DNA of 64,000 nt from Bigelowiella natans CCMP2755 (taxonomy: Eukaryota > Protista > Cercozoa): NCBI GenBank assembly GCA_000320545.1, contig ADNK01000413.1, positions 1-64,000 of the forward strand, given 5' to 3'. This document shows, piece by piece, positions 2,050 through 61,398 of this stretch. The notes beneath the pieces are model-generated. The model searched no databases and was not told the DNA's origin. It saw nothing but the letters and a program-made list of their open reading frames with translations. Positions within the stretch are counted from its first letter, which is position 1; every line of letters begins with the position of its first letter. The translations under genes and the position numbers were made by a program.

Positions 2050-2139
2050 TCTTGGAAAGTTACATCATTCATATGTAGTTTTCAGGCTTTAATTAAATCC
2101 TGTAAAAACCACAGATTTCACCATATCGAGGCATTGGTG

Positions 2140-2640
2140 CGCATGCACAGCGGTCTGCATTCTCTAGTTTTAGAGTTGCTGATACACATGTATGCGGTGA
2201 CATATCTAGACATAGCCGCCGCCGAGACGCACTATGTACGCTAGTACGGCACGATGCGCGCTGCGCCATCGTCCAGCTAGCGCCAGATCTAGCAGATGTC
2301 CAGATTCCAAGCTAGCACATTGCGCAAATCTGCTACATGCATGCTAGCATGCTAGCATCTAGAGCATGGCATGTGCCTGTTGGTCGCAGTTCTAGAGTTG
2401 CCCATGCATATCTTAGTTGCACATGTCTATAGCTAGATAGACACACATCTATGCTAGCTGCTAGCATGGAGATCAACAAAGCTAGAAAGTCTAGAAGTAG
2501 TTGATGAATTTAATTCGCGTCATGCTATAGCGATGATAGCTAGTAGCTTGCACAGCTACCAAGTAGTCTTGCGTGTAATAAGGGTGACCACACATCTAGA
2601 CATGAATGCGATGAGGTCGAAGTTGCATCGCTAGATCGGA
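2140..2640. other. TpA-depleted, CTAG/TG/CA-rich intergenic patch between the convergent SKP1 and dynein 3' ends
   Basis: Most remaining TA lie in CTA/TAG context (gctagc, tctaga); catg and tgca are abundant. Boundaries approximate. Confidence 0.6.
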
Positions 2641-2766
2641 ATCATTAACTGTTAGAAATTTATTTGGAAATCACGACATCTCTTTGGCTTGAGTTGAGTG
2701 CAAAGTGCTCATTTAGAGCTCATCACCCATCTAATTTGTATGATCTAAGCTTTATCAACAATTCTC

Positions 2767-3073
2767 TCACATTGAAGAAATGAATAGTGCTGTGCCACCA
2801 AGTACGCATACTTCGTGGTACTTTGGATCGCAAGGTACGCCAAGCTCACATATGAAATCTTCTCTGCTGCCCATGAAATACATTGGTAATGCCACGTTAT
2901 TGCTAAAATTCCCTTTCTGAAGTTCTTCTTTATCAACCTGAGGTGAATATGCATGTGGTAAAATAGTCTTTTACCAGAAGGAAAAATCTAATAGAAAATC
3001 TATAGAGTTATCTATGAGAGTACATGAAAATAATCAATCACAAAATATTCTGTGAAACATCGTCTCACAAGCG

Positions 3074-3115
<42 letters not shown>

Positions 3116-3116
3116 G

Positions 3117-3156
<40 letters not shown>

Positions 3157-4232
3157 TGCGTCTCTCTGTTTCCGTAGATCTGCTGGCTCTGCTAAGTATG
3201 GAATAACAAACGGGTTGAATGTAAGAAATACCCATGAGACGATACAGTTCGGCATGGTCGTTAGTGAGGGACGATTAGCGTTTGGAACAGGGACTAACTG
3301 CCCGTTTTTGATTTCGCTGAATGAAATAATAATCAATCAATTTACAAGCATCAATATATATAATGCGTTCTAGCTATAAGTATGTACGACAGCCAAATCA
3401 AATACTGGCAATAACAAAAAAATATAATGCATACGGCATATCGACTGAAACATTCCCATTTCTGACAAATTCAAACTTATTATTCATTTTATCCTTATCA
3501 GGTGACCTGCCCTGGATGAGGATTCCTGTAATTTCAACTTGCAGGATGGCGGATTTTGGCATTTGTGCCCGATCAAGGCTACAGAAGAGTGCCAGCTTTC
3601 CAATTTGCACCTTTGCCTCACGTGCTGTCTGTTGCCTAAAAAAAGAAAGAGCACTTAGGAATAGCCACAATACATGTTGTCCTTGGTAGAATGATGAAAC
3701 TTATTCAGACCCCTGGATTCGTCAGGATGTCACACACTCCAAATCTTCATTGTTCTCATATGAGAAAAATCATTCGTTTTCTTTTCTTTCGTTTTTATCA
3801 TTTGTCCATGATTCAAAAGAACATGCACATATACTCCTGCCACCTTAAAGAATTAAAGAAAACTTCAATCTGGAAAAGATCAGCAAGGCACAACGGGGCA
3901 CCGAATAAAGACCCCGATTCTATCCTGTATAGAGTGGGCAGAGAATATATGCGAAAGGGTGTTTTACGCTCAACAATCTCAATGTTCTTCATACAAGCTT
4001 AGGCGCCCACAACTCCTCCTCCTACTGATTCCCATTTGATCTCTACTGACCTCTCTATCCAGGAGTGCAAAGCAACTTTCCTCTTGACAACTTCTCTGAT
4101 CCACGCCTGAACATTAGATACAATATGTGAATGTGGTTGGGATAAACATATGTGCTGCTATTAACTTGAAAATATATACTACATTACTTTTTTGCACGGG
4201 TGCACGTCCGCGTGCATGCAAGCACACAGGAG

Positions 4233-4271
<39 letters not shown>

Positions 4272-7015
4272 TCGGCTCTTCTGGTCCCCACCAGTTCTTG
4301 GCCCATGCCCACGGCACCTTGCCTTTCAACAAATCCTCACCATCTTTCTGTGGATTGAGAACAAAAAACAAGCAATCTGTTACCACTTCTCACAGTTCAT
4401 CAATCATTACGATCACCATCGATCCGAGCAACACCTACTACCTCGATTTGTGGCGTCAAACTGCCCGTTTTATAGAGCACAGAATCTAGGCCCCCAAGAG
4501 AGTGCGATAAGATCGAAATGAGCTTCCAGGTGCGTCCCATTTCGCCATACACGAATCCATCCACAGGATTCATGGTCAATACCTTCTCGTCCATGCTGAT
4601 ATGAATTGATGAGAAAGGAGAACACACGACACAACAACTAAGGTAAGCTGCAATCCAGCGATGTGCGGATACATCATATTCATTCTTGATTTCCATCGAA
4701 AAGGCAAATTACATTGGCGGTTTTTGGCTCAACAATGGATTCTGCTTGGCAGTGTCCCAGACTTTGAAAACTCCCTTGAGTTGATTCCTCCACAATGCCT
4801 TATTGAAGTTGCTCGAGAGTGATGTTGAAACGGCTAGCTTCCGAAGCTGAACAGCTACTTGACGAGTGCGCTTCTGTACAACCAACCTGTGTACGTGCAC
4901 ACACACGCGCACACCGACACACAAATTCAATATCTACGAAGCCTAGCGCGTTTACTGATACGTCGTAATTACGAATTTGCTTCTTACCCTTCGTCGATAT
5001 TGTTTGGAAGGCCAAACATTGCAGGATTGTCATTTGCTGACAGTGACTTTATAAACTCTACATAATCCCTATGCGACTTGGAGTCAGGGATTACACGACA
5101 TCCTGGGGCAAGCGAGGCTCGTGGGGGGGACGACACCTTGTAAGGGTAGCAACATTAAGTAGGAAACAGGTGGGTTGACGATCGACCCACAATACACACC
5201 AGAATACATTTTTCAATATCTAAATTTTCCTTCTGTGTAGCACATCACTCAGTACATCTCCTTAGGAATTCTCTCTTCCTTCCCCACACAAACTACAACT
5301 TATTATTGCGTGTGTCAACGCTGTGTCGTTACTTGGTTCTTATTGAAGTAGCGGTTGAGATACGTATCAAGGATTTTGAGATCATGCTTTGAGTCGATTC
5401 TGCCCCCATAGATCGCTGTCTTAAACAAGCCCAACAACGTCTCCCACGGCACGCTCTCTGGCGTCGCGTTGTCGGCCACAATTTCATCGATAATATCTGA
5501 GCCACTCCGGAGATCTGCGTTGGAAAATTCGTAGAACTTCGTCCATCCCTGGGGCACGTAAGTACGACGCTCTTGCACTATGGCGTGGAACCAAGCCAGG
5601 ATGAACAGGAGCTTCGCGCGGAGCTTACCGCCTTTGGCGATGTAAGCGGGGGACCAGTTGCTGAGGAATTAGGAGGTGTGTGTGATGGAGGTGGTGGTGG
5701 GGGGGGAGGGGGGCAATGCTGGGTGTCGTAGCTAATTCGCCTTTTAACGAGGATCGTGGCCACATGTCCACGCACACAACGCCTTGATTAAAGTGTATAA
5801 TTACCTATAGGTTCTGAGAAGGTTCTCCTTTATTCCAGGGGGTGCTTCGAACGAGATCTTCAGACTCTGCTCTAGCAGAATGGGGGGGAAATTAGAGTGC
5901 GTCTCCGTTGTCAACCAGATCCGGAAAGACGGTTGCGCGCTTTGACTTAGGGATTTGACCAACTTCTCGAGGTGTGGGAGCCACGTTGTCACAAGGTGCA
6001 AGTTTTTAAGCAGGACCATGCCACCCGTGCGCGCGGCCTCCGTAACAAGCTTTTTGTCAAAAGAAAGATAACGGTCAGAACAACCCCCCTCGCTCCTTTG
6101 TTGAGAAGAAAGTGGTGACATGTAGTAGAAAGATGTGGTATGGAAGTATAAACATGTTGGTGTGTTGCAGTACTCCATTGCGAAAATTCGCATGATCACC
6201 TTTACAGCCACTTCTCCCTGCCCAGACCCCATTGCGAGTTGCTTGAATTTGTCTTTTCCGACTTGACTCACAGCAAATTCTTCAATGTCTCTAGATGGGT
6301 CCGCCCCTGCGCTCGTCATGAAAAGTATAGGGGTCGTCTTTGACGCTCGAGTGTTAAGATCCTCCATATCTGTGTGGAATTTCCGAACAAAATACTGAGT
6401 TGCATATGGCCGCACCACAAAGGAATGGATCGCGTCGAAAGTACAACGAAAAATAAATGCTGAAAAAGTGGACGTTGAAAAACGAATAGGCCCTCTTTCC
6501 CGATTCATTCCATATAATTCTTGACGGACGATTAACAATGGTACGCACTTGTCGGAGGCGGTGCGAGGTATTCCTTCCCTATGAGGCCACAGCAGAAGAT
6601 CTTCATGGCCTCTATCACGCGGTCTGGTCGGAGCGCTTGAACAACGAGCAACCGCTGGAACGCTGAGATATGCCCAGGCCCACCTTTGATGGTCTTCGGA
6701 AAGTCTTGGACGGTCTCACAACGTGGGGCCTTCATGAAAGAGGCCCATTCGGTGTTGTCGATGTTGAGAGTGGCAACGAGCGACGGGAATGAGGCCTGCA
6801 GGGCTTGGAATCGCGCGCAAGTCGAAGCGGGGAGTGACTGCGACATCCACTCTGGGAGTTGCCCTTTGGCCTCAAGCTGGACGGACTGTCAAAAGTTGTT
6901 GTTAAAGTGGAAGAAATTGAGGATGAAGGAGAAGCTCGTGCAATCTGTAAAGTGACTATTTGTATTAGCAGCTGTTGCTGTAATTGCTGAACAAATCTCC
7001 CTCACCCTTTCCCCC

Positions 7016-7063
<48 letters not shown>

Positions 7064-7692
7064 ATGTGCACCGTTCAAAATCAAACATTTGGCGTCTCCA
7101 TTGTCGTATTCACGTTGTGACAACCTGTCCGGTGAAGAACTCCCATTCCTCTCCAGCAAATCTCTTGTGAAACATGCAGTGCGTAAGATGCATCCCGAAC
7201 ATCAATCGGTCCTCTTTGAACAGCGAAAGCACTACATAGTCGAAGATCCTGATCAAAGGAGATGCTCATTAGAGAGAAAGAGAGAGAGAGAGGGGGGGGG
7301 GGGGGGGGGGGGGAGTTAACATACGGCAACGTGGGGAGAAGGTGTCTCTGAATCTTTAATTCGGTATAAGTCAAAAAGAATAATTTGAAGCTATATCCTT
7401 TCGCACCTGACAACGAGGCTTCTACAAAGGCCACGAATACGCTGCTTGACTGCATCCTTAGAATCTCCAGCCTTCTCTCTTTGGGCTGCTAAGTTGACTC
7501 GGAAGATATCCAGGAACGCGGAAAGGCTGTAGCAAAGAATTCCAAAAGTAGTAATAAGTGGAGAATTTGAAGAAATCACCATCGATCAGCATGGCCCAAC
7601 AACTGATGCACCAACCTCATCAAACAAGTAGACTATTGACCATCTGCTGCTGCAGCAGCTGCAACGTTGACGACGACGACGACGACGACGAG

Positions 7693-7731
<39 letters not shown>

Positions 7732-10700
7732 ATCACACACGCATCCACACACACACACGCACGCACCTGTAGCGGTACATGTGGTTGACCGCATGGAGTT
7801 GTGCAATCGTGAAATAGAGCCGAGAGCCCGCTCTGGCGATAGGGCGGTAGATGTTTCGCTTGTTGTCAAGGTCCTCGCCAACCTGCTTGCTTTTCTGCAG
7901 AGCCTCTGCGATCACGATCGCCTGTTTTTTGGTCTTGTTGAGAGAGCTGATGAGGGCCTTGTTCTCCAGAATGTCGCCCTCTGAGTTTGCGAGCTCGCTT
8001 AGCAGTGACTCCTCCAATTGTGCGATCTGAATTTTCATGTCTTCTTCCTCCTTGAGCAGCGCGGACTTGCGCGTCTCAAGCTCTGGCATTTCACGGCTAA
8101 GAGTGATACCCAGCAATTGCCCTTCCAGCCCCGATCGTGTAATGGTAAAATTACACTCAGTAATCAAGGCCGACATGTCAGGGCTCAAGTGCGCAGTAGC
8201 AGATCTTGTAGCCAAGAACAAGCGGAAGTTTTCGTTATAGTCGAGTATCTTATCGCCAACCTGGACAACCCAGCGCGGTCCCTGCCGAGTCAAATCTTTG
8301 CGAATCACCTGATGCAATGAAAACAGAGGTGATGTTCAGGGCACCAATGCAGTATAAAGTTTTAGCATGCATTGCTGATACATATAGCATTCTATGTAAA
8401 AAGTGATTGCGATACCGGGACGAGGATTGGCTCGATCGCGTCGACCTCAAGCACAACGAGCGTTTTACCAAATCTCACTGCGAGCTCAAGTGCGTTCACA
8501 AATCGAGCTTCTTGCTGCATGACTACCTCCACCGAACTATTCTTCTTCAGCTCCTTCTGAAGCCATTTTGTTGCTTGAGTGTTGGGGTCTATGATAAAGG
8601 GCGTCTGCGATGTGTTGCGAATTATGAGTGCGTTTTGCATCGAAAGAAGATCTCCGGGGAGGCCATCTGCTTTGAACTTGAGCATTTCGCTCTCGCTCGA
8701 CATGAACTTTATGAGGTCAAATTTGCGAATGTTGGCGAGTTTCATCCACTTTGAAAGCTCTTCCTCGCGCTCACTCTCCGCCTCACCTCCAAGATACCTG
8801 CCATTTATGTAGAACAACCGGTTATTTGTGAAGGGATGGAACGGCCGAAGAGAAGTCTACACTAGGTAAGTTGCGTTGGTTCTTACGTGATGAATCCTGC
8901 CGCGAGGAGCGCATTGAATGGCACCTCGCTGAGGTCTGCTGATAATTGTTTGACCTGCCCCTGCCAGCGGCTTTTCTCACCGCTCAATTTACCGATCAAG
9001 CTCTGTGCGGAATTCAAAATGGTCTCGGTTTTGTTAAGCTCGATCTTGAGCACCTGTGCTTCCTCTGTCGTTTTCTTGAATGTTTGATTTAGCCGCTTCA
9101 CCTAAAATAAATGACGGGAGAGGTCATTCTTGTTTCATTATCATCATCGTCATCCGCCTACCTCATCTTCCAAGTCCTGTTTTTCCTGCTTGCAGCGCGC
9201 GAGGCGAGACTCTGCTGCTTTTAGTTTTTGTGTTGCAGCGGCCTGTTTGGCCTCCAACGGTTTTACGTTGTCCAGCACTTCAGAGTAGGTAAGATTTGCC
9301 TTCACCCACGAAGCCATCGGGGCACAAGCCTGGTTCACACGCTGAATTCGTGCGGGCTCGAACGAATCGCCGGACTTTCGGATGAGGTCCCTCACTGAAG
9401 ATTCACGAGGTCAAGTCAGGTAAGAGAAACTTCCGATTTCTTATTTAGATTAAATACACACAAAAATTCTAAAGACAACGCACCCTTCGCCCGTATTTCC
9501 GGCGTTATATTCCTAGCATCGAACTCCATGATCGAGGTTTTGACATGTGGACTGCCCAAGAACTTTTTCATGTTGTTCCAGCTTGTGTCAAACTCCCCCA
9601 AAATGTACAGAACCGCTGATATCACATCCTGGATTGCATTAGGTGGTATTCGAAGGGCACGAATCTCGTTCAGATTCCTCTTATTAATGCCATTGACGGC
9701 CTTTTTCGCCTCGTCTATTAGCGGCTGAATTTCTTTGAGCTCGGCCTCGATCTTGGTGCGCTCTCCTGTGAGCTTTTCCTCCTCAACCTGCGTTTATCCG
9801 ACAAGAATGATGCAAATGTGTGTTTGTTCTATATGTCGTCGTCATCAATTTGTGGTAGTAATCTAGACATCAGAGAGTTGGAATATCATGGTGCAAGATC
9901 AGACGGATCCACCTCCACTACTTACTTCTATATCTTAATAGCTCGTCTAGAAGAACAACCTTAAGAGCCTTTTCTAGCGTGTCAGTTTCCTGTTTCCTCG
10001 TAGCTGAGAGTGCCATCCGCTGAGAAATAGTCTTGAGCTGGTCGTCCGCTTCCGCGTTTTTCTTCGTTAGCAGCTGCCTCTTGACAGTAGCTTCTCGGCT
10101 CATAATGTCAACCTTTTCACTGGCTTCAACAAGTTTATCCAGCCCGGCTTTCAACCGCTTAGTTTCCTCCAGCTTCACAGCACGCTTCGATCGTAAGATT
10201 GTCTCATACGTATTGAGGAAAGCAATAAATTCTAAAGGCGTGGAGCCTTTGCAGATGACTTCAATAAGCTTCACGACTCCGTCCTGCTGACCGGCAGAAC
10301 TTGCAGCTTTCTGGTCGACATTGACCTCCGCATCGTCGAGAAGCTCAAACAGCGATGAAAGTTTGAGCTGAGGTACCTGGCGCATCGTGTTTTGTGACCA
10401 TGATCCAAGCCAAAGAACGGTACAAGTTGTAAAGATGGCCGGATTGGACTCACAGCGAGAAGCAAACTCGGGATGCTCTGGGTTGAAGCTGAGCACCAAA
10501 CGGACGTTGCGATGCACGCGGGCCACAAAAAATTGATACACAGTCCGGTAGTTGCCATCGCGTTGAAAGTCATCTTTCAAAGGTGCAAGCAGCGGGTCGA
10601 GCTCCGCGGAGCTGAAAAGACCCGGAATTTCACCCGAGGCAAGGAGAGAATTCACAGCTTCGAGCATCACATTTTCAGTGATCTGGAAATCCTCTAGGTA

Positions 10701-12638
10701 GAGCAGAATCTTGGTGTTCTCAACTCCTGCCTTCCGAACCACATTTTGCATGTCAGCCTTAAACTGCTTCATTGTGTAGCCGCGGGACATTCTGGGAGAA
10801 AACACTTCCAAATGATGAATGTGCGCAACGACTGTGATTGTAGAGCGCCTCCCGACCCCCGATCTCCCCACCAATAGCAGCGAACCCCCAGGTTGCGAGA
10901 GGACACGGTCTTCAAAGGCAAGGATATCGAGCACTTGCGGAAACAGGATCAGATTCAGCATCTTATAGTCACGCTCATAGGTACGGATGGCGTCGCGGAC
11001 GAGTTCTTTAAAGTCCTCAACAGAGACCCTTGTCATCTCCTTTCCAAGCTCTTTTGGAACACCCAGGGCATTCTGAGACTTCTTGTCGTCCCCTCCTCCC
11101 GAGTTGACTGGTTCAGCTGCCTCGGATGCAACGAAAGACGCGAAGCACATGCCGTCAATTTTTACCTCATACTTCCATTTGTTGCGCAGAGTGCTGTGAA
11201 CAAGGCCTTTGAATTTCTGCTTATTGGCTTCCTCCACGAGGCGGTCCGCGAAGAGTCTGTGCGCTTCATAGGCCCATACATCGAGGAGTGACTGCGCAGA
11301 GAGGTCGTAGCGCATAAGATTGAAAATCCACCTGGTTAGATCACGTGGGCAAAATAGGTAATGGCGCTGCTCAGATGTGTTGAACTTCCGCCTCAGTTTC
11401 TGGTAGATATCAACAGAAGTTGCAGCAAGCTGCTGATGCGCCTGGGGCTTAGACCACGTTCCGCCCTGCACCATATCTCTCACCTCCGTGCGGTTGTATT
11501 TGATTGCTGCGGCCAGATAGTTTGTGTATATGGCCTTGAGCTGGTCTTGTGCCGGGTAATCGATGTAGCATATATTGACAATAGAAGTGAAGCGAGAGGA
11601 GAGTTTATTGCGGCCAACAGTTGTGCTGGGGTTCATACTCCCAACCACCTGCACCTTCTCGATACCAATCCAATCCAACGAGTCGTCATAGAATCCGTTG
11701 TATGTGATAAGCTGCTGCAAGAAAGAGATCAACTCGCTAGTATTGTATTGATCAGGCTTTGGCAGGTTCAGATTCCTGAGATAAAGGATGAGCCTTTCCC
11801 CGTCCTTTGGTCTCAGTACCCTTCCGCTGTTCGTGTTGAACATGCTGCAGCACTCAAACAGCTTCCCGATTACGTTTTTGGAGTCGGTCTGCGATGAGCA
11901 GTTGATCGTCGCGATGTTTGCCGCTTTTATCTCCGAGAAGGCGTGGCGGAGCAGCATCGTCTTCCCCGCGCCCTCAGGGCCCACTACGATGAATGGTCGT
12001 AGCGCTCGCAACCACGGCCTGATGATGTCGAGATTCGTTTGTATGTCCACGGTCTTGATCACAGGCGGTTCGGTGACCGAGATGTCATCAAAAGTGATGC
12101 TAGCATTCTCTTGTGCATAGCACGCAAGTCGGCTGGTCTTGCGGTCGTAGTAGCAGTTGAGGATGTTGCGAGGATCCGGAGGCTGGATTGACCCAAGAGC
12201 ATAGATACGCTTAGCAAACTCCTTGCGCTCCTGAGCGAAAGATCATAGGGTAGTAGATTCATGAGTGGGAGTGATGACAGCATTAGTAGGCCAGCTACAT
12301 AGATAGACACCACAATTAGCTTATTATGCCTTAGAAGAAGAAGAGTCTTCCTCTTCAAGCCATAATTATCCAAGGAAACTGTTGTACCTTAAGTTGCATA
12401 TTGGAACCGAGTCCACGAATAACACCTAATACGAATTCCACGCGGGTCTTGATTTCCCCTCCCTCGAGCTGTGAGAAGCATGATGTGACGAGACCAACTT
12501 TCGAAGTCTTGACCACCTGGCAATCCATCTTCAACACCCACTCGAGTGCTGAGTAGAAGATCGCGTCCATCCATTCTGATGTGAAGGCGAAAGTTATGTT
12601 GGATGAGTTTTAGGACGCTTTTTTGTTTTGGGGAGAGT

Positions 12639-12717
<79 letters not shown>

Positions 12718-13985
12718 CCAAACGCTGCCCCGCTTTACCAAATACCTGTGAGCTTTGCTCTGATCTCCTTGGGCTGCTGTCGGGAAATCCACGACGCCAC
12801 AAGCCCCTTGATGTCAACATCCTCTTCGCTTAGCAAGATCATACCCATTCGAGAGATGGTCGCTGGTGATGCGAACTGCAAATCGTGTGACTCGAAGATG
12901 AAGTTGACATTACTTCCAAACTGAATCCTTTCGCCATTAGGCATTGTGAGCAACTTGTTGTCGTCCAGCACCGAGTTAAGGGACTCGACCCAGACTGGAT
13001 CTATGTCACCATCGCAGAGAATCCACGAGTGATGTTCTGGAGGCTCTTTCATAACCTGTCGTGCGCTGGCTGTGAGCACGCCATCCTGCCACTCTCGCGT
13101 GTCGGGATCCATTTCCCCGAGCAGCTTGGTGCGGTCCATGGCCTTGGGATTCATTACGTGTGTAACGATTTTGCGCCCCATCTTGCCCAACGCATGTTTC
13201 AACACGCGCCACATTACGGACTTCCCGCACCCTAAGTGACACAAGCACAGGCGTAGAATTCATGTCCATGAGAACGATGAAGACGTGAGAAAGTATGAAA
13301 CGCCGACGTGAGACTACAACGTGCAGTAGTGAGCTCTTTTAGTCCTGTTTGATTCTTTTCTTCTTCTGCATTAGAATTACCTGAAGGGCCAACCACAACA
13401 CAACCCATTCTTTGATTCAACGCCGCGTGCAGTTGCAGCGCTTTCCTGATTTGCGAGTCATTAATCTCCAATTTGAGCTCTTGCAGACTTTGAACGATTG
13501 CCTTTTTCAGGTCGAGGTTCACAACCTCCTCCACCTTCAATCCCGAGAATACGTCCTGACACCAAGGAAACACACACACGAGAATCATCACACAGAAGTT
13601 GCTGATGTTGTTTTGTGCTGCACATCGCATCATGTAATGACGAGCTACTAACGCAGGAACATCATACCTGTACAAGCTGGTTGAATCTAACACCATCCGT
13701 ATATGTGAGCTTTGACAATGTATTGATGCACGCAGCGCCGACTAAAAGCTTGGCCTCCACGTTCCAATCAACCGTTCTCCCTGCTCTGCGCTCTTTTTGA
13801 ATTAACGCGCCTCCGTATCGCAACACCGTTTTCAGTGCGCGCAAGCCCCAGTCGTAGTGCTTTTGGCGGGATAATAGCTGTTTCGAAAGCTGGTAAACTT
13901 CGATGAGTTTGTGGCCAAGGTCTCTTGCGTGTTCAAATCCCTCCGCGTAGAGCATCACCTTGTGAAAGATAGTATATTATATATA

Positions 13986-14029
<44 letters not shown>

Positions 14030-14436
14030 CACGCACATTTTTCTATATTTTTTCAGATATGTTTATCTATAGCCGGATATTTGCTCTCTACATTCAATGA
14101 CGTCCAGCCCTCCCCAAAAAAGTGGTTGTGTGCTACATGATCACACCCATCTATGTATGTGCATAGTTGCAAAGATCCGAAAAGGAGGGGGAGTGCGGGA
14201 GGGATGTACCCACCTCTCCGATCAGCTTCATGTTTGGCTTTGACATGGCAACAGCACGGAAGAGCTGTTTTAAGTTGTGTGGTAGCTTCGACCGACCGCC
14301 GTATTCCTTGGAAGCTGGATTCATCGTGACAAAGATAGCAGCGTTCCTGTTTACCTCGACGGATGTGCCTAAAATCTCTGCCATCGGCTCGCCGTGTTTC
14401 AGAGCAGCCTTATGACAATGATTAAGATCAGGCAAA

Positions 14437-14470
<34 letters not shown>

Positions 14471-17654: not shown

Positions 17655-17729
<75 letters not shown>

Positions 17730-18873: not shown

Positions 18874-18953
<80 letters not shown>

Positions 18954-19893: not shown

Positions 19894-19939
<46 letters not shown>

Positions 19940-43337: not shown

Positions 43338-43352
43338 ATCACTGTGGATTTT

Positions 43353-47008: not shown

Positions 47009-47033
47009 AAATGACTCAAAGATGTGAACACAC

Positions 47034-47639: not shown

Positions 47640-47665
47640 ATGTTTGAAATGATTGTCGTTTCATT

Positions 47666-48451
47666 GTGATTGTCATCATCCATTGCAATCACAATGTGAC
47701 CAATTCTGAAAAGGGCAAATGCAAAAAATTAGACATGAAACCAACAATGACAACCAAAAAAAAACAGATCCACAACAATTGCAACTTGACACCTTCGTTT
47801 CCAAACAGATGCTCATTCACAGCTCCAACAGGAAGTGGAAAATCAGTGGTGATGGCAAATTTGTCAACTCGTAAAAGACATTCAAGAAACTTCTTTGATG
47901 TTGTTTTGTTTCACTCTCCAAACGTTCACTTTGAAGACGAACGTGCAGAAACAAAGGCAAAAAATGAAAAAGCAGAAATGAAATTTGAAGAAAAGTTCAA
48001 AGAGAAAGAGTTTGGAGCCATGGTTCATGAAGTGATGCGAGAACAAAAAGAACTAAAAGACAAAAAGAAACACATGAAAAAAACATTGACAATCATTGAT
48101 GATTTCGCTTCAGATGAAAAAGTGATGAAAAGTGAAACATTGAAAGATTTGTTCTTTGCTGGTGGAAAATGTGGTGCATGTGTTTGGATCACCAGTCAGT
48201 GTTGCAAAATTGTTTCTCCTGATGTTCGCACAAATGCCGAACATTTGATTGTTTTTAGCAGACAACCTTCAACTGAATTGAAAAAGATGGCTGAAGAAAT
48301 GTCAACAGGCAAATGCACTGAGAAAAAAATTGTGGAAACACTTGATGAAATGTCTTCTGTGGATCATTCATTTCCACATTGCAATCGCAAGCAACCAATG
48401 AATGAAAGGTGCATGATCAATTTTCAAAGTTTCATGAACATCCAAACATGA
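47666..48451 (+). pseudogene. A32/FtsK-HerA-type viral genome-packaging ATPase, hypermutated
   Basis: Walker A APTGSGKS; Walker B TIIDD; LFFAGGK...WITSQ..KIVSPDVRTN motif region; zero Tyr in 261 aa. Confidence 0.85.
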
Positions 48452-48707
48452 TCAATGTGGATGAACTTTTGCCAGAATCACATTCAAAAAAATCAGGAAC
48501 AAATCATCATCATTTGACAGTCGTCCAAAAAAAAACAGCAAATCCTTTTTCACATTCAAAAAAATCAGCTGTCATGGTCCCAGCTGTCAAACCTGCTGGT
48601 TTTTTTGCGAGAGAATTTGTGAGAAAAGAAGTGCCTGTGAGCATCAAACGAACATTTGAAAGGTGTCAAATGTCAATTAATTGTCATCTAAACGTTGACA
48701 ATGACAC

Positions 48708-49271
48708 ATGGGAAATGACAATTCTTCACCACCAAAACCAAAACCAATCCACATTCCAAAGCCACATTTTCCAAAACCAAAACCAATGCATGTTCCAAGA
48801 ATTCCCACAGAAAAAGCAACTAAGCCTGTGAACAAAGGAACAAAAAAAGGAGCAAATCATCTTGAAGACAAACTGACACATCCAGTTGCTGCTGCAAATG
48901 AAGCTGAAGGAGCATTGAGTGAATTGGATTCTGTGTCTCACGGCAGTCTTGGTGTTGTGCATCAGGGATCTCAAGTTGTGTTTCCACAATTTGGATTGGC
49001 CGTCACATTGGCCACTGTAGCAGATGAAATGGCTCACAATGATGGTGAGTCATCAAAAAAAACATCAAAAAACATCTCATCAAATCAGGCTACAGGAGGT
49101 GTTTGTGGTGATTGTCAAAGTGTCAGAACCATTGAAAAATCAGAGCTTGTGACTGAAATGGAAAACAAATTCAATGCAGATTCACACGACTCACCAGATG
49201 TTGATGGAGCAATTCCAGTTTCTGTGGAAGGCAAAATTTCTGTTGATGATGCGACCAGAAAACTCAGATGA
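48708..49271 (+). pseudogene. Hypermutated viral ORF, unknown function (MGN start, PK repeats)
   Basis: 187-aa ORF preceded by TCTA at -21; zero Tyr. Confidence 0.5.
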
Positions 49272-49683
49272 ATCACTTTTTCTCATCTTCTTTGATTTCA
49301 GGACTTGGCAGAAATGTTCCAAGTGTCAGAATGACAACGTTTGAAAAAGCATTTCTTTCTGCTACATTTTTTGCTGTTGCAACTTGAAGCACACTGAATG
49401 TTGAAACACTGAACATTGCACCAGATTTCAGGAAAAACTCTGAAGCCCTTTTGTCAGAAGTTGAACAACAAGACTGGTGAGCATCAATGTGTTTTTCATC
49501 CTCTGATTCTTTTCTGTGTGGCATCTCTTCCATCATTCTGTCTTTGCATTCTTCAGAATCATTCATGTCTGCAACTTTTTGTTGTTTTTCATCTGCTTTG
49601 TGTTCGATGGATTGTGGAACAATCATTGCAAACAGTCACAAACAAAATGCCACAATGATTTTTTTTCTGTTCTTGTGATGACA

Positions 49684-50578
49684 ATGGGATCATTTGATGA
49701 GATGAAAGATGGATTCAAAAAGGCTGTTAATGATGTGCAAAAATCATCAGGGCATGCAACAAAGCAAATCAAAAAAGACTTCACAAAAGCAGGAGATGCT
49801 GTCAAAGATGTGTCTGTCATGGCAGGTGATGAAATCAAAAAAGGAGCCCATGAAGTTGGAGATCAACTGAAAAAACAAGAAGTCCAACAGGCACTCGCAG
49901 GGACTGGAATTGCTTTAGCTAATGTTGCTACTGGAGGGGCATTTGCTCCAGAATTAATGGCAGGTGGATTAGCAATTCAAGGTGCCATTGAGTCAGCACA
50001 TTCAAAATCTTTACCTCATGACACTGTGCTGCAGGCAGGAACCGCATGTGCCACTGGTGAATTAGATTTTAACAAAAGAGGACCAGGTGTTGGTTCATTT
50101 AGCGAAGGTATTTCTAATTTGAGAGAAGAAGGTGTGAAACGATTTGATGGTGTTGAAGATGAATTATCAGATGAAGCTATGAAAAGACATGATGATGTAA
50201 AAGGCAAAGCATCAGCAAGATTAGGATTTGATCCAACACAAATGCAATCTACAGATGAAGCTATGGATTCATTAAAAGCACAAATTGACAAAAATAGAAA
50301 TATTAGAGCAACAGCTAATGGATTTAAGAAGTGGAAAAGCATTAGAAAATTTAACAAACAAAGCAAAAAGTGAATTAAAAAAAGAAGTAAGTAGTCAAGG
50401 CAATAAAATACTAAATGATGTTTTAGGTAAAGTGTCTCAAAAGAAAAGCAAAGTGAAAAAAGCCATGAAAAAAGTTAAGAAGAAGATGAAATCTTCTAAA
50501 GGCAAAATGGCTGATGTCATTAAAAAGGTGAAACAAAATCAACAGAGATACAGAATGTCAAGTGGCATTGTGAATTAA
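49684..50578 (+). pseudogene. Viral ORF with Gly/Ala hydrophobic segment and basic C-terminus, probably frameshifted near 50290-50370
   Basis: MGSFDEMKDGFKK...ALAGTGIALANVATGGAF; the overlapping ORF 50285-50578 continues with K-rich sequence. Confidence 0.45.
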
Positions 50579-50646: not shown

Positions 50647-52311
50647 ATGGATGCAATTAGTGAAACTACCGATGTTAGTAGATTTCCAGAAATCGACTAC
50701 AGTTTACCCCCTATGGATAAAATTTTCATTGATTCAGTCTCTCATTTTAGAGAAGAGATGAAAAATAGTAACAATGCTAAAAAAGCGAATACCAAAATGA
50801 GATTTTTTGTTCCAGCTCAACAAAGAGCAGTAGACCCATCTGAATTACATTTTCAATTAAATGTTGCTGCCAGAACAGCTGGAGATGCTGATTTACCAGC
50901 GGTTGACCAATTAAGATTAAGACTTGCTGAAGGTGGAGTTCATTCTCTCTTTAGAGAGATGATCATTAGAGATGGTAGAGGTAACATCATTGAAAAAATT
51001 AACAACTATGACCTTGTTACTAAAATTTTACAAGATACTTTGTTGACTAAAGAAGTTAAAAATAATTTGTTAAATGTGGAAGGTGTTCATGATGACCAAG
51101 GATTGTTCAACACAGTTCATAGCAAATTTGATATTACTGGTAACACCTTAGAATTAAAAGCACCTGTGGCTCAGGTCGTAGCTGATACTCTTCCAGCAGG
51201 TGCGGCTGATTTTCCCGCAGCCAATGCTGCTCCTGTTGCTGCTGTGACCACTCCCGCTTCACCATCAAGAGTACTTGGTGTAGGAACTCAATTCTTAACT
51301 GAACTAAGACCAGGTTCTGTTGTTAAATTCAATGGAAACAGTTACACAGTTGCCCATGTTGTATCTGACACAGAATTTGTATCTGCTACTAACATTGCTG
51401 CTGATGTTGCTGCTGCTAACATTGTTGCTGGTAGAGATTTTGTTGAAGGATTACTTGAAACAGAAAGTCGTTACAAAAAATTCCATCACGATGGACTTTT
51501 TACAGCAGATGGAGCTGTTCATTGCTTTCAGCCATGCTGCTCTGGGTTTTCATCTCAAAACAAATACCTTCATCTTGATCATTGTGGTGGGTTAGAATTT
51601 GAATTTACTTTAGATAGCAATGCCATGATTTTCGATGATGCTAATGCAGCAGGTAATGCCAATATTTTCATTAAACAAGGATATGTTCATCACACTGCTC
51701 TTGAATTTTCACCAGTTGTTGAAGCTGCTCTTGCTAAAGCATATGTGAGAGGTTTATCTATGAGTTTCCCTGTGTACCATGTAGTTAGTGGAACACAAAA
51801 TGCTTCTACCTCTGTTTCTCAGGAATATCAAGAAAGTTTAGCAATTCTTGAAATGGTTAAAATTGTTAGTAGACCAACTGGGTTTGATGCAAATGCTGGA
51901 GCATCATTTTTCTTTGAAGATCTAACCAGTGCTAAAAGAATTTACTGGGAGATCAACAAACAAAGATTTACTGAGTGTGGCAATGATGACATTTTACCTC
52001 AAGTTGTTTTTGTGAACAACAGAATCGGTAAAAATCTATTAGGAGATTACAAACATGCTACAATTTCTTATGGAGAATTCAAAGAAGCAGGTAAATCTGC
52101 TTTAATTTTCAATGCGCAAAACTACAAAGAAGGTAATTACACAGGAGTTAACACCAACCGAGCAACTATGAGACTTAAAATTGAAGGAGGAGATGGTGTT
52201 GGTTCTTTACAACCTGGTATTGCTAATCAAGGTAGACAAATCGATGTGTTAATGATGCACGAGCAATACATTATGTTAAAAGATGGAGAAAGTGTGACAG
52301 TTCGTAGCTAA
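50647..52311 (+). CDS. Major capsid protein (PLV double jelly-roll type) with internal insertion
   Basis: MRFFVP...VDPSELHFQLNV and GGVHSLFREMIIRDGRGNIIEKINNYDLV match the N-terminal PLV MCP pattern; 554 aa; lies directly upstream of the penton-like gene. Confidence 0.78.
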   Translation: MDAISETTDVSRFPEIDYSLPPMDKIFIDSVSHFREEMKNSNNAKKANTKMRFFVPAQQRAVDPSELHFQLNVAARTAGDADLPAVDQLRLRLAEGGVHSLFREMIIRDGRGNIIEKINNYDLVTKILQDTLLTKEVKNNLLNVEGVHDDQGLFNTVHSKFDITGNTLELKAPVAQVVADTLPAGAADFPAANAAPVAAVTTPASPSRVLGVGTQFLTELRPGSVVKFNGNSYTVAHVVSDTEFVSATNIAADVAAANIVAGRDFVEGLLETESRYKKFHHDGLFTADGAVHCFQPCCSGFSSQNKYLHLDHCGGLEFEFTLDSNAMIFDDANAAGNANIFIKQGYVHHTALEFSPVVEAALAKAYVRGLSMSFPVYHVVSGTQNASTSVSQEYQESLAILEMVKIVSRPTGFDANAGASFFFEDLTSAKRIYWEINKQRFTECGNDDILPQVVFVNNRIGKNLLGDYKHATISYGEFKEAGKSALIFNAQNYKEGNYTGVNTNRATMRLKIEGGDGVGSLQPGIANQGRQIDVLMMHEQYIMLKDGESVTVRS

Positions 52312-52428
52312 TTTCATTTTTCTATCAATCATTCCAATCCTTTGGGATTTGGAGTTGCTTCGCCAACATTTGTTGTTAAATTCCACCAAAATTTATATCA
52401 TGAAAATTTATTTCTAATATAAATTAAT

Positions 52429-53145
52429 ATGAAACAACACAAAATTTATTTTAATAGCAAAGATAGAATTACTGGAACAACCAATAATTTAAATTATCAA
52501 TTAAATAGTGTAATTGATAATGTATCTTCTATTTCTATTACAAGAGCAAGATTTCCAATTACTTGTTACAATGTGTCAGCTAAAAATAACATTTTAGAAA
52601 TTGAGAATAGTTCTGGAAACAAAACAAGTATGGAATTAACAAAACAAAATTATGGTGCTACTGAATTAGCAACAGAATTACAAACTAAACTTTCAACTAA
52701 TGCCTCAACAGTAGGAACTTTTACTCCTGTGCACAATGCTAAAACAGGAAAATTTAGCACAGGTTGTAGTAATAGTTTCAAAATAATTAAAAACGAATGC
52801 TCTAAATTTTTAGGTTATAATGACACTACACCTCTTTCTACATTGCATGTAGCAGATAATATGAGTAATCTATCACCAAAACCTGTTTACATTCAAACTG
52901 ATTTACAACTGGATACAGAATTAGCAGGTCAATTGTCAAGTGTTGTGCATGAAGTCTCTGGCGATGTGTCTTTTGGTAGTATCTCATATGATAATGAGAA
53001 ACCAAGTGAAAGGATTGAATTAATGAAAAAAAAGAATGTAAGCAACTTAAAATTTACACTTGTAGATGGTAATGGAGATGAAATAGAAAATAATGGTACA
53101 GATCATTCTATGATGGTATCTTTGTTTTGTCAGACTAAGGAATAA
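52429..53145 (+). CDS. Minor capsid (penton-like) protein
   Basis: IYFNSKDRITGT..L...IDNVSSISI..ARFP...YNV...NN, NY...ELA.ELQ and LKFTLVDGNG..IENNG.D.S match PLV/virophage penton patterns. Confidence 0.75.
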   Translation: MKQHKIYFNSKDRITGTTNNLNYQLNSVIDNVSSISITRARFPITCYNVSAKNNILEIENSSGNKTSMELTKQNYGATELATELQTKLSTNASTVGTFTPVHNAKTGKFSTGCSNSFKIIKNECSKFLGYNDTTPLSTLHVADNMSNLSPKPVYIQTDLQLDTELAGQLSSVVHEVSGDVSFGSISYDNEKPSERIELMKKKNVSNLKFTLVDGNGDEIENNGTDHSMMVSLFCQTKE

Positions 53146-56297: not shown

Positions 56298-56490
56298 ATG
56301 ACTATAAGAAAAGTGTATTTTTATGGATTAACATGTTTAAATACAAGAGAAACATATATAGGTTCTACTACTATGGATCCAAAATTAAGATTACAAATGC
56401 ATGTCGCTAATTTTAGAGCACATGAAAAAGGTTTTGGTAATTTTTGCTCTTCGTATCAAATTTTAAAAAGAGATAATTATATGTTTAAAG
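56298..56490 (+). pseudogene. N-terminal half of a GIY-YIG endonuclease, truncated
   Basis: VYFYGL...TYIGSTT...RLQMH...CSSYQIL, followed by an abrupt switch to helicase sequence. Confidence 0.7.
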
Positions 56491-57744
56491 TTAAACAACG
56501 AATGTAAATACATAAGAAAATTTGATATTTCACCACATGATGTTATATGCTTTGATGAGGTTTATATATATTCACTACATCAACTATCAAAAATTAAGTT
56601 ATTTATGGATAAGCATGTTGATAAAAAATTTATTGCTACTGGTGATTTAGCTCAATTGGATCCCATTGAAAACGAATATCTGTTTAACAACATCAAAGAC
56701 CTTGATGTTAGAACAACTGAAGCTATGAATGATATGTTCCCTAATCAAATCACTCTTAAAATCTGTAAGAGAGTAAAAACAGACGAGGAAAGAAATACTC
56801 TTGCACGATTAAAACAAGAAATATTTGATGTAAAAACTAAACCATTTGATGTGCTAAAAAAATATTTTAAAGTTGTTGAAAGTATGGATAAAGTAAAGAC
56901 TCTTAACAATATTACCTTCTACAACTTTAGATCCCGTTCAGTAGGTAAGTATATCCACGGTCTACAATAGAAACCGAGAAAAAAAGTTTATGTAGATGGT
57001 ATTTGCTACTATGCTGGTATGGAGATTGTGTGTAAAAAATATAATAAGAAACCAAAACTATATGTGAACTATGCTTATGAAATTGTTAAAGTAAGTAAAA
57101 AAGAATTTGTAATACAGGATGTATGTGATATGGAAGAAATAAGAATTCCTATAGAATTAATTAGTAAGCATTTTAGATTATCATATGCCTCTACCTGTCA
57201 TAGTTTCCAAGGATTATCAGTAGATGGCCCTATCACCGTATTCGATACTAACACCTGTAGAATTAATCGCAAGTGGCTCTGGACTGCTATAACTCGTTCA
57301 ACTGACCTATCACAGATACAAATATATCAGCACAGCGATAAAGAATGCTACAGATTAAAAGAAAGTATGATTTCTCAAAAACTACGAATGAAAGTATCTT
57401 CATATGAATCTCAGGACAAAAGAGCTGGTAGAACTTGGAAAGATAAAGAACATATTGATGAGGAATGGATAAAAAGAACTGTTAATAATCATCCACAATG
57501 TCCTGTGTGTAGATGTGGATTTACTGCTGATAATGTTTCTGTGGATAGAATTGATAATGCTCAACCTCATCTGTGGAATAATTGTAGATTGACTTGTGTG
57601 GAATGTAATCTTAGTAGAAATAATCAACAGACTTACCCAGCATTTGGTGAGTACACCCCTCAGGATGTTGAGTTTGAAGATGGCTTTGAGGATCAATGGG
57701 TGAAACCTGGGTACGAAAACACCATCACTGGGCTGGAGCTTTGA
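56491..57744 (+). pseudogene. C-terminal fragment of an SF1 helicase plus HNH-like domain (PLV replication protein), with in-frame stop at 56968-56970
   Basis: VICFDEVY (Walker B), ATGDLAQLDPI, YASTCHSFQG, WTAITRS, then CPVC...VDRIDNAQPH..NNCRLTCVECN. Walker A is absent. Confidence 0.78.
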
Positions 57745-57991
57745 GGCATCGTGTGCCCCGAAAATTTGACATTTAATGTCTTTGCCACATCAGCCACACG
57801 TGTCAGTTCTTCACCGGAGACTCTCCCCGCTGCTGGGCATTCCGGGATGAAAATGGGAGTCCCTAATCTTCGGACACTAACGGACACTAACGGGCAATAC
57901 CGGTAATACTCCCGGTAATGCTCTTTCCGGGGATTCGCCGCAACGAGAGTCTCCCGTGAAGATCTTCACTCCAGACTCGAAATCAGACTCG

Positions 57992-60183
57992 ATGAAGCGT
58001 AGTGGATCTTTTGACGAGAAAAGGAAGGTAGATGAAAGAATCCCTAGCAGGAGAAGTTCGAAAGCACAGGTACTTATCCTACGAGGCTTGCGTTCGGGAG
58101 CTTAAGCTTTGATGTGTTCTCAGCGTTCTGAGGTATGGGGAAATCAGATGGACTCTATTAGCAAACAAATCGAGAAATTGAGGGATGAAAGAAAAGCTTT
58201 GAGCATCGCTTGGGCAACGGAGAAGAATAAGGAGAAAGAAGAGGCGCTCAAGGGTGCTATTGACAAATTGGACGAGGAAATTCAGGCGAAGGAGGCAGAA
58301 CTGAAGGAAACGATAAAGAAATTCGAGGAGGCAACCCAAGGTTATGAATTCTGTTAACATCTGAGGAAACAATCGGTGTGCTGAGATATTTTTGCGTGTG
58401 TGTTCAGCCATGGAAATTGAGGAAAGCGGCAGGGGGGGTGATGCCCAATGTCTCTGTGCAAATAATCCATTGTTCTAATTTTATTGTGATTTGATTTCAG
58501 GGGAGAAACGCAAAAGCATATCGGATTACGAACGAGGAAGCGAAACAAAAGGTGACTAGACTCATCCTCTCTAAGTATCTGTTTGATAGTCCCGCTTTAC
58601 GTGGATACACAGGCAAACGATTCAAGATTGACACGGATGCCGAAGAATTTTTCCAAGCTTTGAGAGACACTCCGTTCACAAAAGGGACTGCAATGCAGCT
58701 GGTGCGCATAACGAAGAACATCCTCGTACCTGGGCATCGTGCTAGTTGGATTCGGGGGTCCAGGCACCCTGTTACTCTTTTCTACCGCAAGGCATTTTCA
58801 GAAGCAGTACGCAGATTTCGAGAATGTTATCAACTTCGCCGTGAGGGAAAGTCGAGCATTGATTGCTGTATACTCTCTGGGCAAAGTGGTATAGCCAAGA
58901 GTGTGGCCTTTTTGCTAACGTACATCAAGGTGGCGCTTAAAAATGACGAGAAGGTTGCGTTCTATTCCGTGCCAGAGGGTATCCTTTACTGCATCTACGT
59001 CGAGAACGGTACAGTCAAGTGTTCAACATCTGTAGTTACCCCCTTAACATTCCACAGTGAAGAATGGAAAAGCTTTGACTCTACTTCGACACACCTTGTC
59101 GTCGATCCCGAGAACGGATTCGGGCACCTAAATGTCAACATCACAAAAGCCTTTGTGGTAGTGGCAAGCTCGCCCAATAAGGAGTGGAAGCAATTCGAGA
59201 AACTCCTTAAGGCCGGAACGAAGAAGCGGGATCTCACCTTGTATGCGGATGTCATCCAAGAAGATGAATTCAACGATATTTCTGCGGGAAACAATGAGAG
59301 TGGCGGGGCGGATGGAAACTGTACTGTCAAGGGCTTAAAAAGCCGATCCGAGATAGCCGGGGGGATGTTGCGGCACATTGTGGACGAGCAAAAGTTCAAG
59401 AAGTTTCAAGACTCCCAAGACCACATGTTGCGAATGTTTCAGGGCAAGATTGGCGAAAACGTGGAGATGATACAACCTAGGGATGTCGCTTTACCAAGTT
59501 CCGTGTTCTGCATCCGCCCCATTCTTAAAGACGGTTCGCACACTAGTTCGGATTTTGTCCTGGATTTCCTGAGCCCTTATGTAGAATCCAGAGTGGTAGG
59601 GGCGCTTGCCGAGGAACAGTCTAAGCAGAGTGAAAGTATGTCTGGTTTAGAGGCAGAAAGAAGGTGGTTTCACCTCATAAAGAATGGGGGAAATTTTGAA
59701 GGCCGACATGTCGGCTCACATTTGCCAGAAGAATTGAAAGGCAAGACTATCACTGTCTCATTTAGTCGACACAAACGAGTGATTCACCATCGCGAAAATA
59801 GTAAGGAAGAAAAGAATAAGTGCTTGGAGGAAATCCGCGAATTGAAGGATTCGAGCACGCTGGTCATTTGCCCTCCGAACTACACAAACATAGATGGTGC
59901 TTCAAGTGCTGAGGTGCTGCATCAGATGGCTAAAGGAAATGTTCACGACTTTAAAGTCAAACACAAAGACGAGGTTCTTGTGGATACGAAAGTTGTCACG
60001 ATTTACTACTACACTTTGGAGAAGCATTATCATACATTCCGTGTGAATTTCGTTTACAAAGACGTGTCAAAATCTGACCAGGAAGCGTGGAAGAAAACCT
60101 GGCACAAGCACTTGAGGTTCGTAGTCGTAAAACTCGATCCGGTAAGATTTTGGGATAAATTAAAGAAAGCACTTGGAAAATGA
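57992..60183 (+). CDS. Crinkler/RHS-like effector gene (N-terminal coiled coil, P-loop NTPase, REase-like C-terminus), spliced, inside the TIRs
   Basis: ILSGQSGIAKSVAFLLTY, LVVDP, VVVASSP, GGMLRH and PPNYTNIDG...HQM...H motifs; GT-AG intron 58070-58123 joins in phase. The splice path into 58501 is not fully resolved. Confidence 0.6.
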
Positions 60184-60270
60184 AAGCGAAATCCGAAAGG
60201 TTAAAGCGATCATTAGCGATGAGTGAGGCGCACACTACTGTGGCTAGAATTCAAGATGTAGCGATGACGT

Positions 60271-60627
60271 GATGCTCTGCTGTGGAATTTGCTATGTCAT
60301 TTTTAACAAAGATTGTTTTCACAAAACACATGGGATGTGCCCGTGATTTTCATCATGTCATTCTAGCAATTCAGTTCAGTAGTAGGTCGTCAGTAGGCAA
60401 ATTTTCATGTTGCGCATTTTCGCAATTTTTGCTACTGATTGCTGATGGGAAATCAAATGTGGGTCACTTGACATGTCATGCTCGTGCAATTTTGCCATGT
60501 CATTCTAGCAATTCAGTTCAGCAGTAGGTCGTCAGTAGGTGAATTTTTGAAATGAAAATTTTGTGTCATTCCCCCACTGACGGCAGATGGGAAATCAAAT
60601 GTGGGGCATGGTGTAGTAGTCTGCTGC
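60271..60627 (-). repeat. Right terminal inverted repeat
   Basis: Reverse complement of 41812-42169; retains more TpA than the left copy. Confidence 0.92.
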
Positions 60628-61070
60628 GCACACGATGCATGACGTGAGCAGCTTGTCTAGCACATGGCCACGGCGACCAGGCTAGCTAGCTAGGCCTGCG
60701 CATGTGCTGCGCATGCGCAGCGCATGCACGCCGCACGCAGCGTAGCCGCCATGCTGCGCACGCTAGCACACGTGCTACGCACTGCTGCTCCAGCTGGCCA
60801 GTGCTGTTGGACTGCACATGTGCATTGCTAGATTGTGACGGACCATTGAAAAAAGTGACAGATCATTTCATTGCATCCGTCTCGCTACCATCTCGCACTG
60901 ATGAAACTTCATTGCTGCTAGCTCTAGTTAGCTAGGGCTAGCTAGTCAGCAGCACGTGCAGCAGCTGCTGTTGCGATCGTGCACATCTTGCGAGAGCGCA
61001 GCTCATTCTCATTGGTGCAACAAACTAGCAATCAAAAACATGTGTCTGCAACATGCTGCATTGCTTTTGC
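60628..61070. other. TpA-depleted, CTAG-rich flank to the right of the element
   Basis: gctagctagctag runs; virtually all TA in CTA/TAG context. Confidence 0.6.
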
Positions 61071-61398
61071 TTCCCTGATTTCACCAAAGAAACAACCAAT
61101 CAGATGCCATGTTAGTACTGTTTTAAATTATATTCACAATTGACAACCCCACCCGCAGGGCTTGTCATTTTCTATCAGAATGTATCTTGTATGAAGCTCC
61201 ATTTTAGAGAAGCATTACTCGGCATGAAAAGGAAAATGATGATTTAAACGCTTCGATGGATTCAGGATTCAGACATACAAGGACACCCTTGACAGTTTGT
61301 GTACTCCGGCTGAGAAACGAAAGTTTCTTCTGCCTTCAGTTGATGCTCATCATAAGGTTTTCAGAGAATACTGGATCCTACAAAGTTCTCGTGCGCGT

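Follow-up and report, generated by a model that had tools for sequence, protein, structure and literature searches.

Repeat-induced point mutation (RIP) of fungi ruins repeats by transitions at a specific dinucleotide of either strand, and TpA arises from CpA. Silencing by convergent transcription, as in the RNA interference of S. pombe, the disiRNA (dicer-independent small interfering RNA) of Neurospora and the nat-siRNA (natural antisense small interfering RNA) of plants, needs overlapping transcripts and results in methylation, with no A>G edits. The closest described system is that of the chlorarachniophyte alga Bigelowiella natans, where TpA-restricted A>G hypermutation was reported to arise de novo in a viral insert of 186 kb that was silent, with a footprint also on reverse transcriptase (RT) and DDE genes, and where an adenine deaminase was proposed as the candidate enzyme (Mettrop et al., bioRxiv 10.64898/2026.01.13.699255). 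B. natans is likewise known to carry endogenous virophage/Polinton-like elements (Blanc et al. 2015, as cited in PMC13196603 and by Mettrop et al.). Here we analysed 64,000 nucleotides of contig ADNK01000413.1 of B. natans CCMP2755 (hereafter the window), which by its sequence appears to be chlorarachniophyte nuclear DNA and in which repeats lying between converging host genes, among them a virus-like element bounded by terminal inverted repeats (TIRs), have lost TpA (Table 1). The editing itself is known; the window is a further instance of it, with a plausible, statistically thin positional pattern.

An earlier note on this DNA had claimed that TpA-depleted patches cover all four intervals between convergent gene ends, the stretch at 40.9-61.1 kb being a single patch. 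When the ratio of observed to expected TpA was computed over the patches as bounded in that note, with microsatellites masked, it was 1.27 at 2.1-2.6 kb (gap 1), 0.49 at 27.8-29.4 kb (gap 2) and 0.99 at 34.3-35.0 kb (gap 3), and within gap 4 it was 0.10 at 40.9-50.0 kb, 0.69 at 50.0-60.2 kb and 0.58 at 60.25-61.0 kb. Host gene bodies gave 0.67 and the four divergent gaps 0.63, 0.62, 0.66 and 0.78, in agreement with the note's description of the divergent intervals as ordinary. Since gaps 1 and 3 exceed the gene value, the claim of four depleted intervals does not hold, and the hypermutation of the B. natans type does not apply to the patches in these two gaps. Similarly, 50-60 kb is near background, and gap 4 holds a single element between TIRs, of which only the left half is edited, rather than one depleted patch. 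True depletion was confined to two convergent gaps, at 27.8-29.0 kb and at 41.1-50.0 plus 60.3-61.1 kb. The part of the claim which survived is that every depleted tract is convergent: all 11 runs of more than 500 bp without TA outside CTA/TAG context lie inside gaps 2 and 4. We also applied the published cut-offs as recomputed here (TpA ≤0.43 and CA+TG ≥1.52 in 1-kb windows, by a ratio that may deviate slightly from the published one), a hypermutation cluster being at least three 1-kb windows that satisfy both. Ten of 64 one-kb windows passed, a lone one at 28 kb and nine consecutive ones at 41-49 kb, with none at 2 or 34 kb. The TpA ratio of the gap 2 subregion 27880-28980 was 0.20. Introns are spared, as had been noted: 7 of 11 intact (TA)6+ runs lie within the spans of the dynein, patatin and 37-40 kb genes, three others at the divergent edge at 36.9-37.3 kb and one within convergent gap 3. 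A coding tandem repeat at 26700-27720 (AEKKE-type units) lowers TpA in 500-bp windows without editing and is a false positive for TpA screens.

The direction of the changes was read from the packaging ATPase of the element. When compared with four wild relatives, 38 of its 50 differences were undone by TG/CA>TA (mean 11.4 and maximum 20 in shuffles), and the other 12 were unexplained by TA editing. The window ATPase has no Tyr, compared with 10-13 in the wild relatives, conserved Tyr having become Cys (5), His (3) or Phe (1). Copies differ by TG versus CA at at least 15 paired sites among the 80 entries listed (3029 and 124 lie beyond these), therefore either strand is hit. Transitions were dominant among the mismatches of sequencing run X1 (A>G 704, T>C 667, G>A 438, C>T 432), and a short simulated burst of TA editing turned the 4-mer spectrum of the right half of the element into that of the left half with r = 0.96. 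These results indicate that the depleted DNA is repeats rewritten from TA to TG/CA on both strands, and the process matches the TpA hypermutation previously reported in B. natans, with which it shares TpA>TpG/CpA changes on both strands, a virophage-like insert and RT-bearing elements as targets, and a chlorarachniophyte host. The likeness to RIP extends to dinucleotide-specific transitions on both strands and to ruined repeats, but the direction is opposite: the left half has lost TpA (0.07, with TG/CA at 1.77) and its G+C content has risen to 38% from the 32% of the right half. These values rule out RIP, which changes C to T at CpA and gains TpA.

Copy number was estimated from assembled contigs, not reads, in 4 DNA runs of the 14 listed, and these may include the source of the window itself. 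The element was multicopy in all four (1140-1252 contigs per run aligned to 41.2-61.2 kb), and over the relic in gap 2 the summed contig depth of run X14 reached 521-925 versus 77 for single-copy DNA, or 7-12x. All strongly edited stretches consist of multicopy repeats; the divergent gap at 30.6-31.2 kb is single-copy. The gap 2 relic contains an imperfect palindrome of 117 bp (28365-28481). In addition, gaps 2 and 3 and the two flanks of gap 4 share a motif of about 100 bp, the 3' end of open reading frame (ORF) 2 of a long interspersed nuclear element (LINE), as shown by its match to the end of the endonuclease-RT frame at a comparison locus, L003 (Exo_endo_phos_2 1e-17 and RVT_1 2e-16 in ORF2). 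The window itself carries only such 3'-end stubs and not the LINE endonuclease and RT. Scores above the null were obtained for stubs in four of the five convergent flanks, which belong to three of the four convergent gaps, and in none of 5 divergent/upstream gaps; no stub was detected by this scoring in gap 1. The stub in gap 3 had a summed depth of about 49,000 versus 70 (approximately 700x single-copy), with 100 contigs at 34764. At L003 itself (1-5162) the LINE, with ORF1 and the endonuclease-RT ORF2, is apparently intact and its flanks are CTAG-rich on both sides. A scan of viral contigs for the LINE motif gave 62 loci, none of which aligned past 24 nt, and one of three metagenome loci (L004) was rejected as a chance match. 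Another comparison locus, L005, is readable on one side only, where a plus-strand gene (stop at 1061) is followed by a flank that alternates (0.69), is rich in TA and contains a LINE end, and then by an edited element of the long terminal repeat (LTR) type. The latter (2250-6162; integrase zinc-binding match) has 4 TA outside CTA/TAG context in 3.9 kb, and the LINE tail may be represented by (TAAA)n at about 1745-1770.

We consider it fairly probable that the TpA-poor stretches are edited repeat insertions surviving in promoter-free convergent gaps, and that the editor acts on silent repeats regardless of orientation. Alternating genes would leave the convergent gaps as promoter-free space, and LINE stubs, other repeats and the virus-like element would persist there under a presumed selection against insertions into divergent gaps. 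The convergent gaps likely collect repeats because insertions there break no promoter. The persisting repeats would fall silent and, with silent chromatin as a putative cue, would be edited by the TpA process, for which an adenine deaminase is a candidate enzyme. The suggestion of the earlier note that convergent ends tolerate insertions, which undergo editing afterwards, is consistent with the multicopy nature of the strongly edited DNA and the distribution of LINE stubs; its suggestion that untranscribed DNA is the substrate is compatible with the data.

That note had also proposed zones of read-through double-stranded RNA. Read-through from both genes could yield double-stranded or small RNA over the gap and guide the editor, which we judge to be very unlikely. 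All edited stretches of the window do lie in convergent gaps, editing begins about 80 bp past the stop of the coiled-coil gene, and RNA guidance was raised as a possibility by Mettrop et al. However, TA is intact for 300-700 bp past 5 of 6 window gene ends beside an edited core, and likewise at L005; fully edited DNA reaches as far as 9 kb from the closest end of a host gene; the two shortest gaps, which are the likeliest for overlap, are the least edited; and both strands are hit alike. RNA contigs (unstranded, low-depth) end at 34342-34354 and 29330-29361, and those from two studies stop at 34342-34354 and 29349-29361 where a DNA contig continues, which is a weak hint in the same direction. 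In the RNA contigs of runs X15-X17, 27730-29305 and most of 34355-35290 were uncovered except for short repeat matches, which, given low depth and filters, proves nothing. Silencing by convergent transcription places its marks between convergent gene ends as here, but the editing in the window mostly avoids the DNA adjoining gene ends.

The earlier note fused TpA editing with a second signature, the composition of the alternating, CC-poor, CTAG-rich flanks, which is probably what it saw. This signature was picked after inspection of the data. Purine/pyrimidine (R/Y) alternation was 0.56-0.63 in all five convergent flanks (all four gaps) versus 0.43-0.46 in five divergent/upstream gaps, gene windows having a median of 0.47 and a top value of 0.67 in a microsatellite-rich intron. 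The CC/GG ratio was 0.41-0.55 versus 0.87-1.14, and CTAG occurred 8-25 versus 0-2.9 times per kb. Alternation is 0.447 in the edited left half of the element and 0.474 in the other half, and transitions cannot alter the R/Y pattern; therefore the TpA editor did not make it. Moreover, alternation begins at transcript ends where TA is still abundant, the edited cores lying further inside. TA editing as the sole cause of the flank signature was rejected on this ground and on the fit of the simulation (r ≤ 0.58). With C>T at CC added, r rose no higher than 0.73, and the fourfold CTAG and the GpC of 1.8 were not obtained together; this simulation speaks neither for nor against a second mutator. An alternating skeleton with partial editing gave r = 0.78, partly by construction, and left GpC, CTAG and AGCT unexplained. 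Tandem 4-mers (73 versus 20 expected) and (GCTA)n runs near LINE ends may contribute to the signature. Thus, the flank composition is likely a separate feature, the normal make-up of DNA just beyond gene 3' ends, with partial editing overlaid. The methylation motifs TGCA and RCGY given for ChlorV in PMC13196603 showed no link to the host flanks.

It could also be that two edited inserts landed by chance in two of the four convergent gaps and that the shared composition is ordinary 3'-flank DNA. The comparison of convergent with divergent gaps for TpA depletion (2/4 vs 0/4) gave P = 0.21 by Fisher's test, where 3/4 would give 0.07 and 4/4 would give 0.014; the flank signature of all four gaps was selected post hoc, and the efficiency elements at yeast 3' ends also alternate (UAYRUA; PMC6420913). 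Since LINE stubs occur in three of four convergent gaps and in none of five others, and since L005 has the same layout on its readable side, we regard such chance placement as distinctly improbable.

Editing depended on the bases next to TA. In the left half 47 of 57 surviving TA are CTAA, CTAC or CTAG on either strand, versus 169 of 621 in the right half (P = 2e-16), and in the LTR-type element of L005 these sites make up 52 of 56. They are slow but not immune, because both outcomes occur at CTAC. A per-strand TAY rule fitted worse (Akaike information criterion 91.6) than slow CTA or slow TAG (60.6; free model 44.2), survival counts being unable to say which strand is slow. The composition shifts (CCA +82, CTG +27; ATG +137, ACA +63) lean weakly towards slow CTA and fast ATA. 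Along the element, editing is complete at 41.1-49.9 kb, drops over 49.75-50.5 kb to about one quarter in the capsid gene, where 5 of 19 informative Tyr are changed (22 columns, 3 Phe excluded), and sets in again at the right TIR and flank. The segment with the CRN-like frame shows no editing although it has several near-identical copies.

This course of editing would be expected if convergent gaps were nucleation sites, the CTAG-rich flank or old LINE stubs seeding a silent state from which editing spreads kilobases into inserts, a possibility that we hold to be unlikely but not negligible. The LINE at L003 is also TA-poor in the 3' kilobase beside its CTAG-rich flank (13 free TA in 251-1250 versus 41 in 1501-2500), and the flank signature recurs at both L003 and L005. 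However, flank edges are often TA-rich and unedited, the CRN-like frame adjoining the right TIR is unedited, and a mosaic of edited and unedited copies, formed by recombination or gene conversion, would look alike; rearranged copies do exist. In addition, two capsid paralogs of B. natans are edited throughout the gene (17 of 17 informative Tyr changed to Cys or His). With similarly low expectation, an alternating, CTAG-rich sequence in the convergent gaps may seed a DNA adenine editor, from which editing would extend over kilobases into recently inserted viruses and transposons, leave transcribed DNA alone and depend on the base beyond TA, CTA/TAG being slow.

Several points weigh against edited repeats surviving in promoter-free gaps. 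There are only four gaps per class in one window, and no tandem gaps to separate convergent position from position downstream of any 3' end. Gap 1 shows the flank signature, yet no repeat was detected there. Editing is weak or absent in the element's right half and in the multicopy CRN-like segment, which simple repeat recognition would not predict, and no simulation gave GpC of 1.8 and CTAG of 4.2 (best r 0.72-0.79). Insertion preference of the elements, and not selection alone, may have shaped the pattern. Finally, the virophage insertions of Cafeteria are mostly in genes (15, with 4 in 3' untranslated regions and 3 intergenic; PMC8547959), therefore purging is not universal.

The DNA at 41812-60627 (18.8 kb) is a single multicopy element between inverted repeats of about 360 bp, and its gene content points to a virophage/Polinton-like element. 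It resembles the endogenous elements of this kind in B. natans by its TIRs, multiple copies, A32 ATPase, likely major and minor capsid genes and part of a helicase, and differs from them by the CRN/RHS-like frame inside the right TIR and by the Pfam result for integrase, protein-primed DNA polymerase B and virophage cysteine protease, none of which was found among 14 element frames, although edited frames may escape detection. A wild ATPase relative (P0003, 71% identical to the window protein) matched Pox_A32 with E 1.4e-12. The capsid candidate gave no Pfam match; its Atlas features were at 0.96-0.97 to viral clusters including Capsid_NCLDV, and the single-sequence fold of a wild relative (predicted confidence, pLDDT, 30) was too low to judge a double jelly-roll. 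The nearest named relatives of the element proteins are gene models of B. natans (Bigna1; 76-84%). No capsid or ATPase relatives were found in the viral contigs searched, and a TIR motif scan gave two loci without further likeness to the element. In a fully edited copy (P0032, Bigna1 131131) the capsid and minor-capsid frames are fused in one 779-aa model, as would be expected if a TAA stop were edited away.

Each TIR contains an internal 142-bp duplication (41838-42086; 60354-60601). Another copy joins differently at 56493 in the helicase region, and the summed depth at 56.5-58.5 kb exceeds that of the element core, which suggests shorter derivative elements bearing the right arm. Copies of the unedited CRN/RHS-like segment (57745-60270) differ by 1-6 changes per 0.4-1.2 kb. 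CpG is low across 42200-57740 (0.29 left, 0.40 right; flanks 0.75-0.96), and several of the differences between gap 2 paralogs are CG versus TG/CA, hinting at cytosine methylation of repeats.

The strand strictly alternates over nine consecutive host genes (1451-63999), giving four convergent, four divergent and no tandem gaps. This order, which the earlier note had described, was confirmed by ORFs, Pfam matches, splice joints and last-exon mapping; if strands were independent its chance would be 1/256, and it was noticed post hoc. The strands of the B9D2 and patatin genes were taken from CT..AC and GT..AG joints, respectively, in RNA contigs and from Pfam. A Pfam scan of the long coiled-coil gene gave no match, and the nearest CK1 matches carrying an organism name were from Lotharella (83-84%). 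The label 'GT-like' for the gene at 37-40 kb is unconfirmed, as neither of two exon scans was above the cut-off.

Table 1. Host genes, gaps, edited DNA and repeats of the window
Feature	Position	Strand	Remarks
SKP1 host gene	1451..2049	+	Pfam Skp1 E 6.7e-07; ORF; stop 2049
Convergent gap 1	2050..2766	.	core 2120-2640 alternating, CC-poor, CTAG-rich; TpA not depleted
Dynein heavy chain host gene	2767..22880 (start approximate)	-	Pfam DHC_N1, AAA_7/8, AAA_lid_11; last exon 2937-2767
Long coiled-coil host gene	23560..27723 (start approximate)	+	ORF 23995-27723; stop 27723
Edited core of convergent gap 2	27806..29019	.	single TA outside CTA/TAG context in 1.2 kb
LINE ORF2 3'-end stub, gap 2	27915..28030	-	L003 match E 5e-04; score 90 vs null maximum 68
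Multicopy repeat relic, family other than LINE	28045..28674	.	paired TG/CA differences between copies
B9D2-like host transcript	29330..30618	-	Pfam B9-C2; spliced RNA contigs in 3/3 RNA runs
Patatin-like host transcript	31306..34354	+	RNA contigs, Pfam; additional intron 33874-33980 leads to stop near 34184
Convergent gap 3	34355..35484	.	alternating, CC-poor; edited core of 220 bp only (34751-34971); (TA)n intact at 35032-35057
LINE ORF2 3'-end stub, gap 3	34716..34840	-	best-preserved, very abundant family; 82% over 118 nt to L003, E 1e-25
Casein kinase 1 (CK1) host gene	35485..36616	-	Pfam Pkinase
Intron-bearing host gene, function unconfirmed	37347..40596	+	end at 40596
Left flank of gap 4	40600..41811	.	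alternating; TA-rich edge grading to edited DNA from ~41140
LINE stub, gap 4 left flank	41265-41385	-	
Fully edited left half of element	41812..49955	.	TpA ratio 0.07; ATPase without Tyr
Left TIR	41812..42169	+	92-95% complementary to 60271-60627
A32-type packaging ATPase, edited	47735..48451	+	relatives with Pox_A32
Likely major capsid protein, partly edited	50647..52311	+	Atlas features
Likely minor capsid protein	52423..53145	+	DUF5901 below cut-off; after capsid gene, likewise in Bigna1 131131
SF1-type helicase, C-terminal part	56467..57744	+	UvrD_C_2 E 1e-06; stop at 56968 breaks frame
CRN/RHS-like open frame within TIRs	58495..60183	+	several near-identical copies; TpA not depleted
Right TIR	60271..60627	-	TA retained at most sites where left TIR has TG/CA
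Right flank of gap 4	60628..61398	.	alternating, CTAG-rich
LINE stub, gap 4 right flank	60800-60895	+	
SERBP1-like host gene	61399..62330	-	Pfam HABP4_PAI-RBP1
RPL26 host gene	63381..63999	+	Pfam Ribosomal_L26

In the main text of Mettrop et al. the words 'orientation', 'CTAG' and 'trinucleotide' are absent and 'convergent' is used of evolution only; that text does not deal with placement by orientation, the sparing of CTA/TAG, a one-sided gradient or alternating flanks, and the mutation and cluster lists of the same work may bear on them. A literature search, whose coverage left out Blanc et al. (2015) and the majority of subscription journals, gave no report of orientation bias, CTA/TAG sparing, a one-sided gradient of editing or alternating flanks in this alga. 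A low TpA ratio is distinct from the TGCA/CATG/CTAG-rich appearance of 3' flanks, and genome-wide screens need to tell the two apart. On how the TpA editor of chlorarachniophytes chooses its targets, the window offers three handles: edited islands relative to gene orientation or repeats, fading with distance from the flank, and the flanking-base rule. Any candidate deaminase should reproduce this rule, by which CTAA, CTAC and CTAG survive here and again at L005. If a flank-seeded adenine editor were at work, gene orientation would position a mutagenic genome defence.

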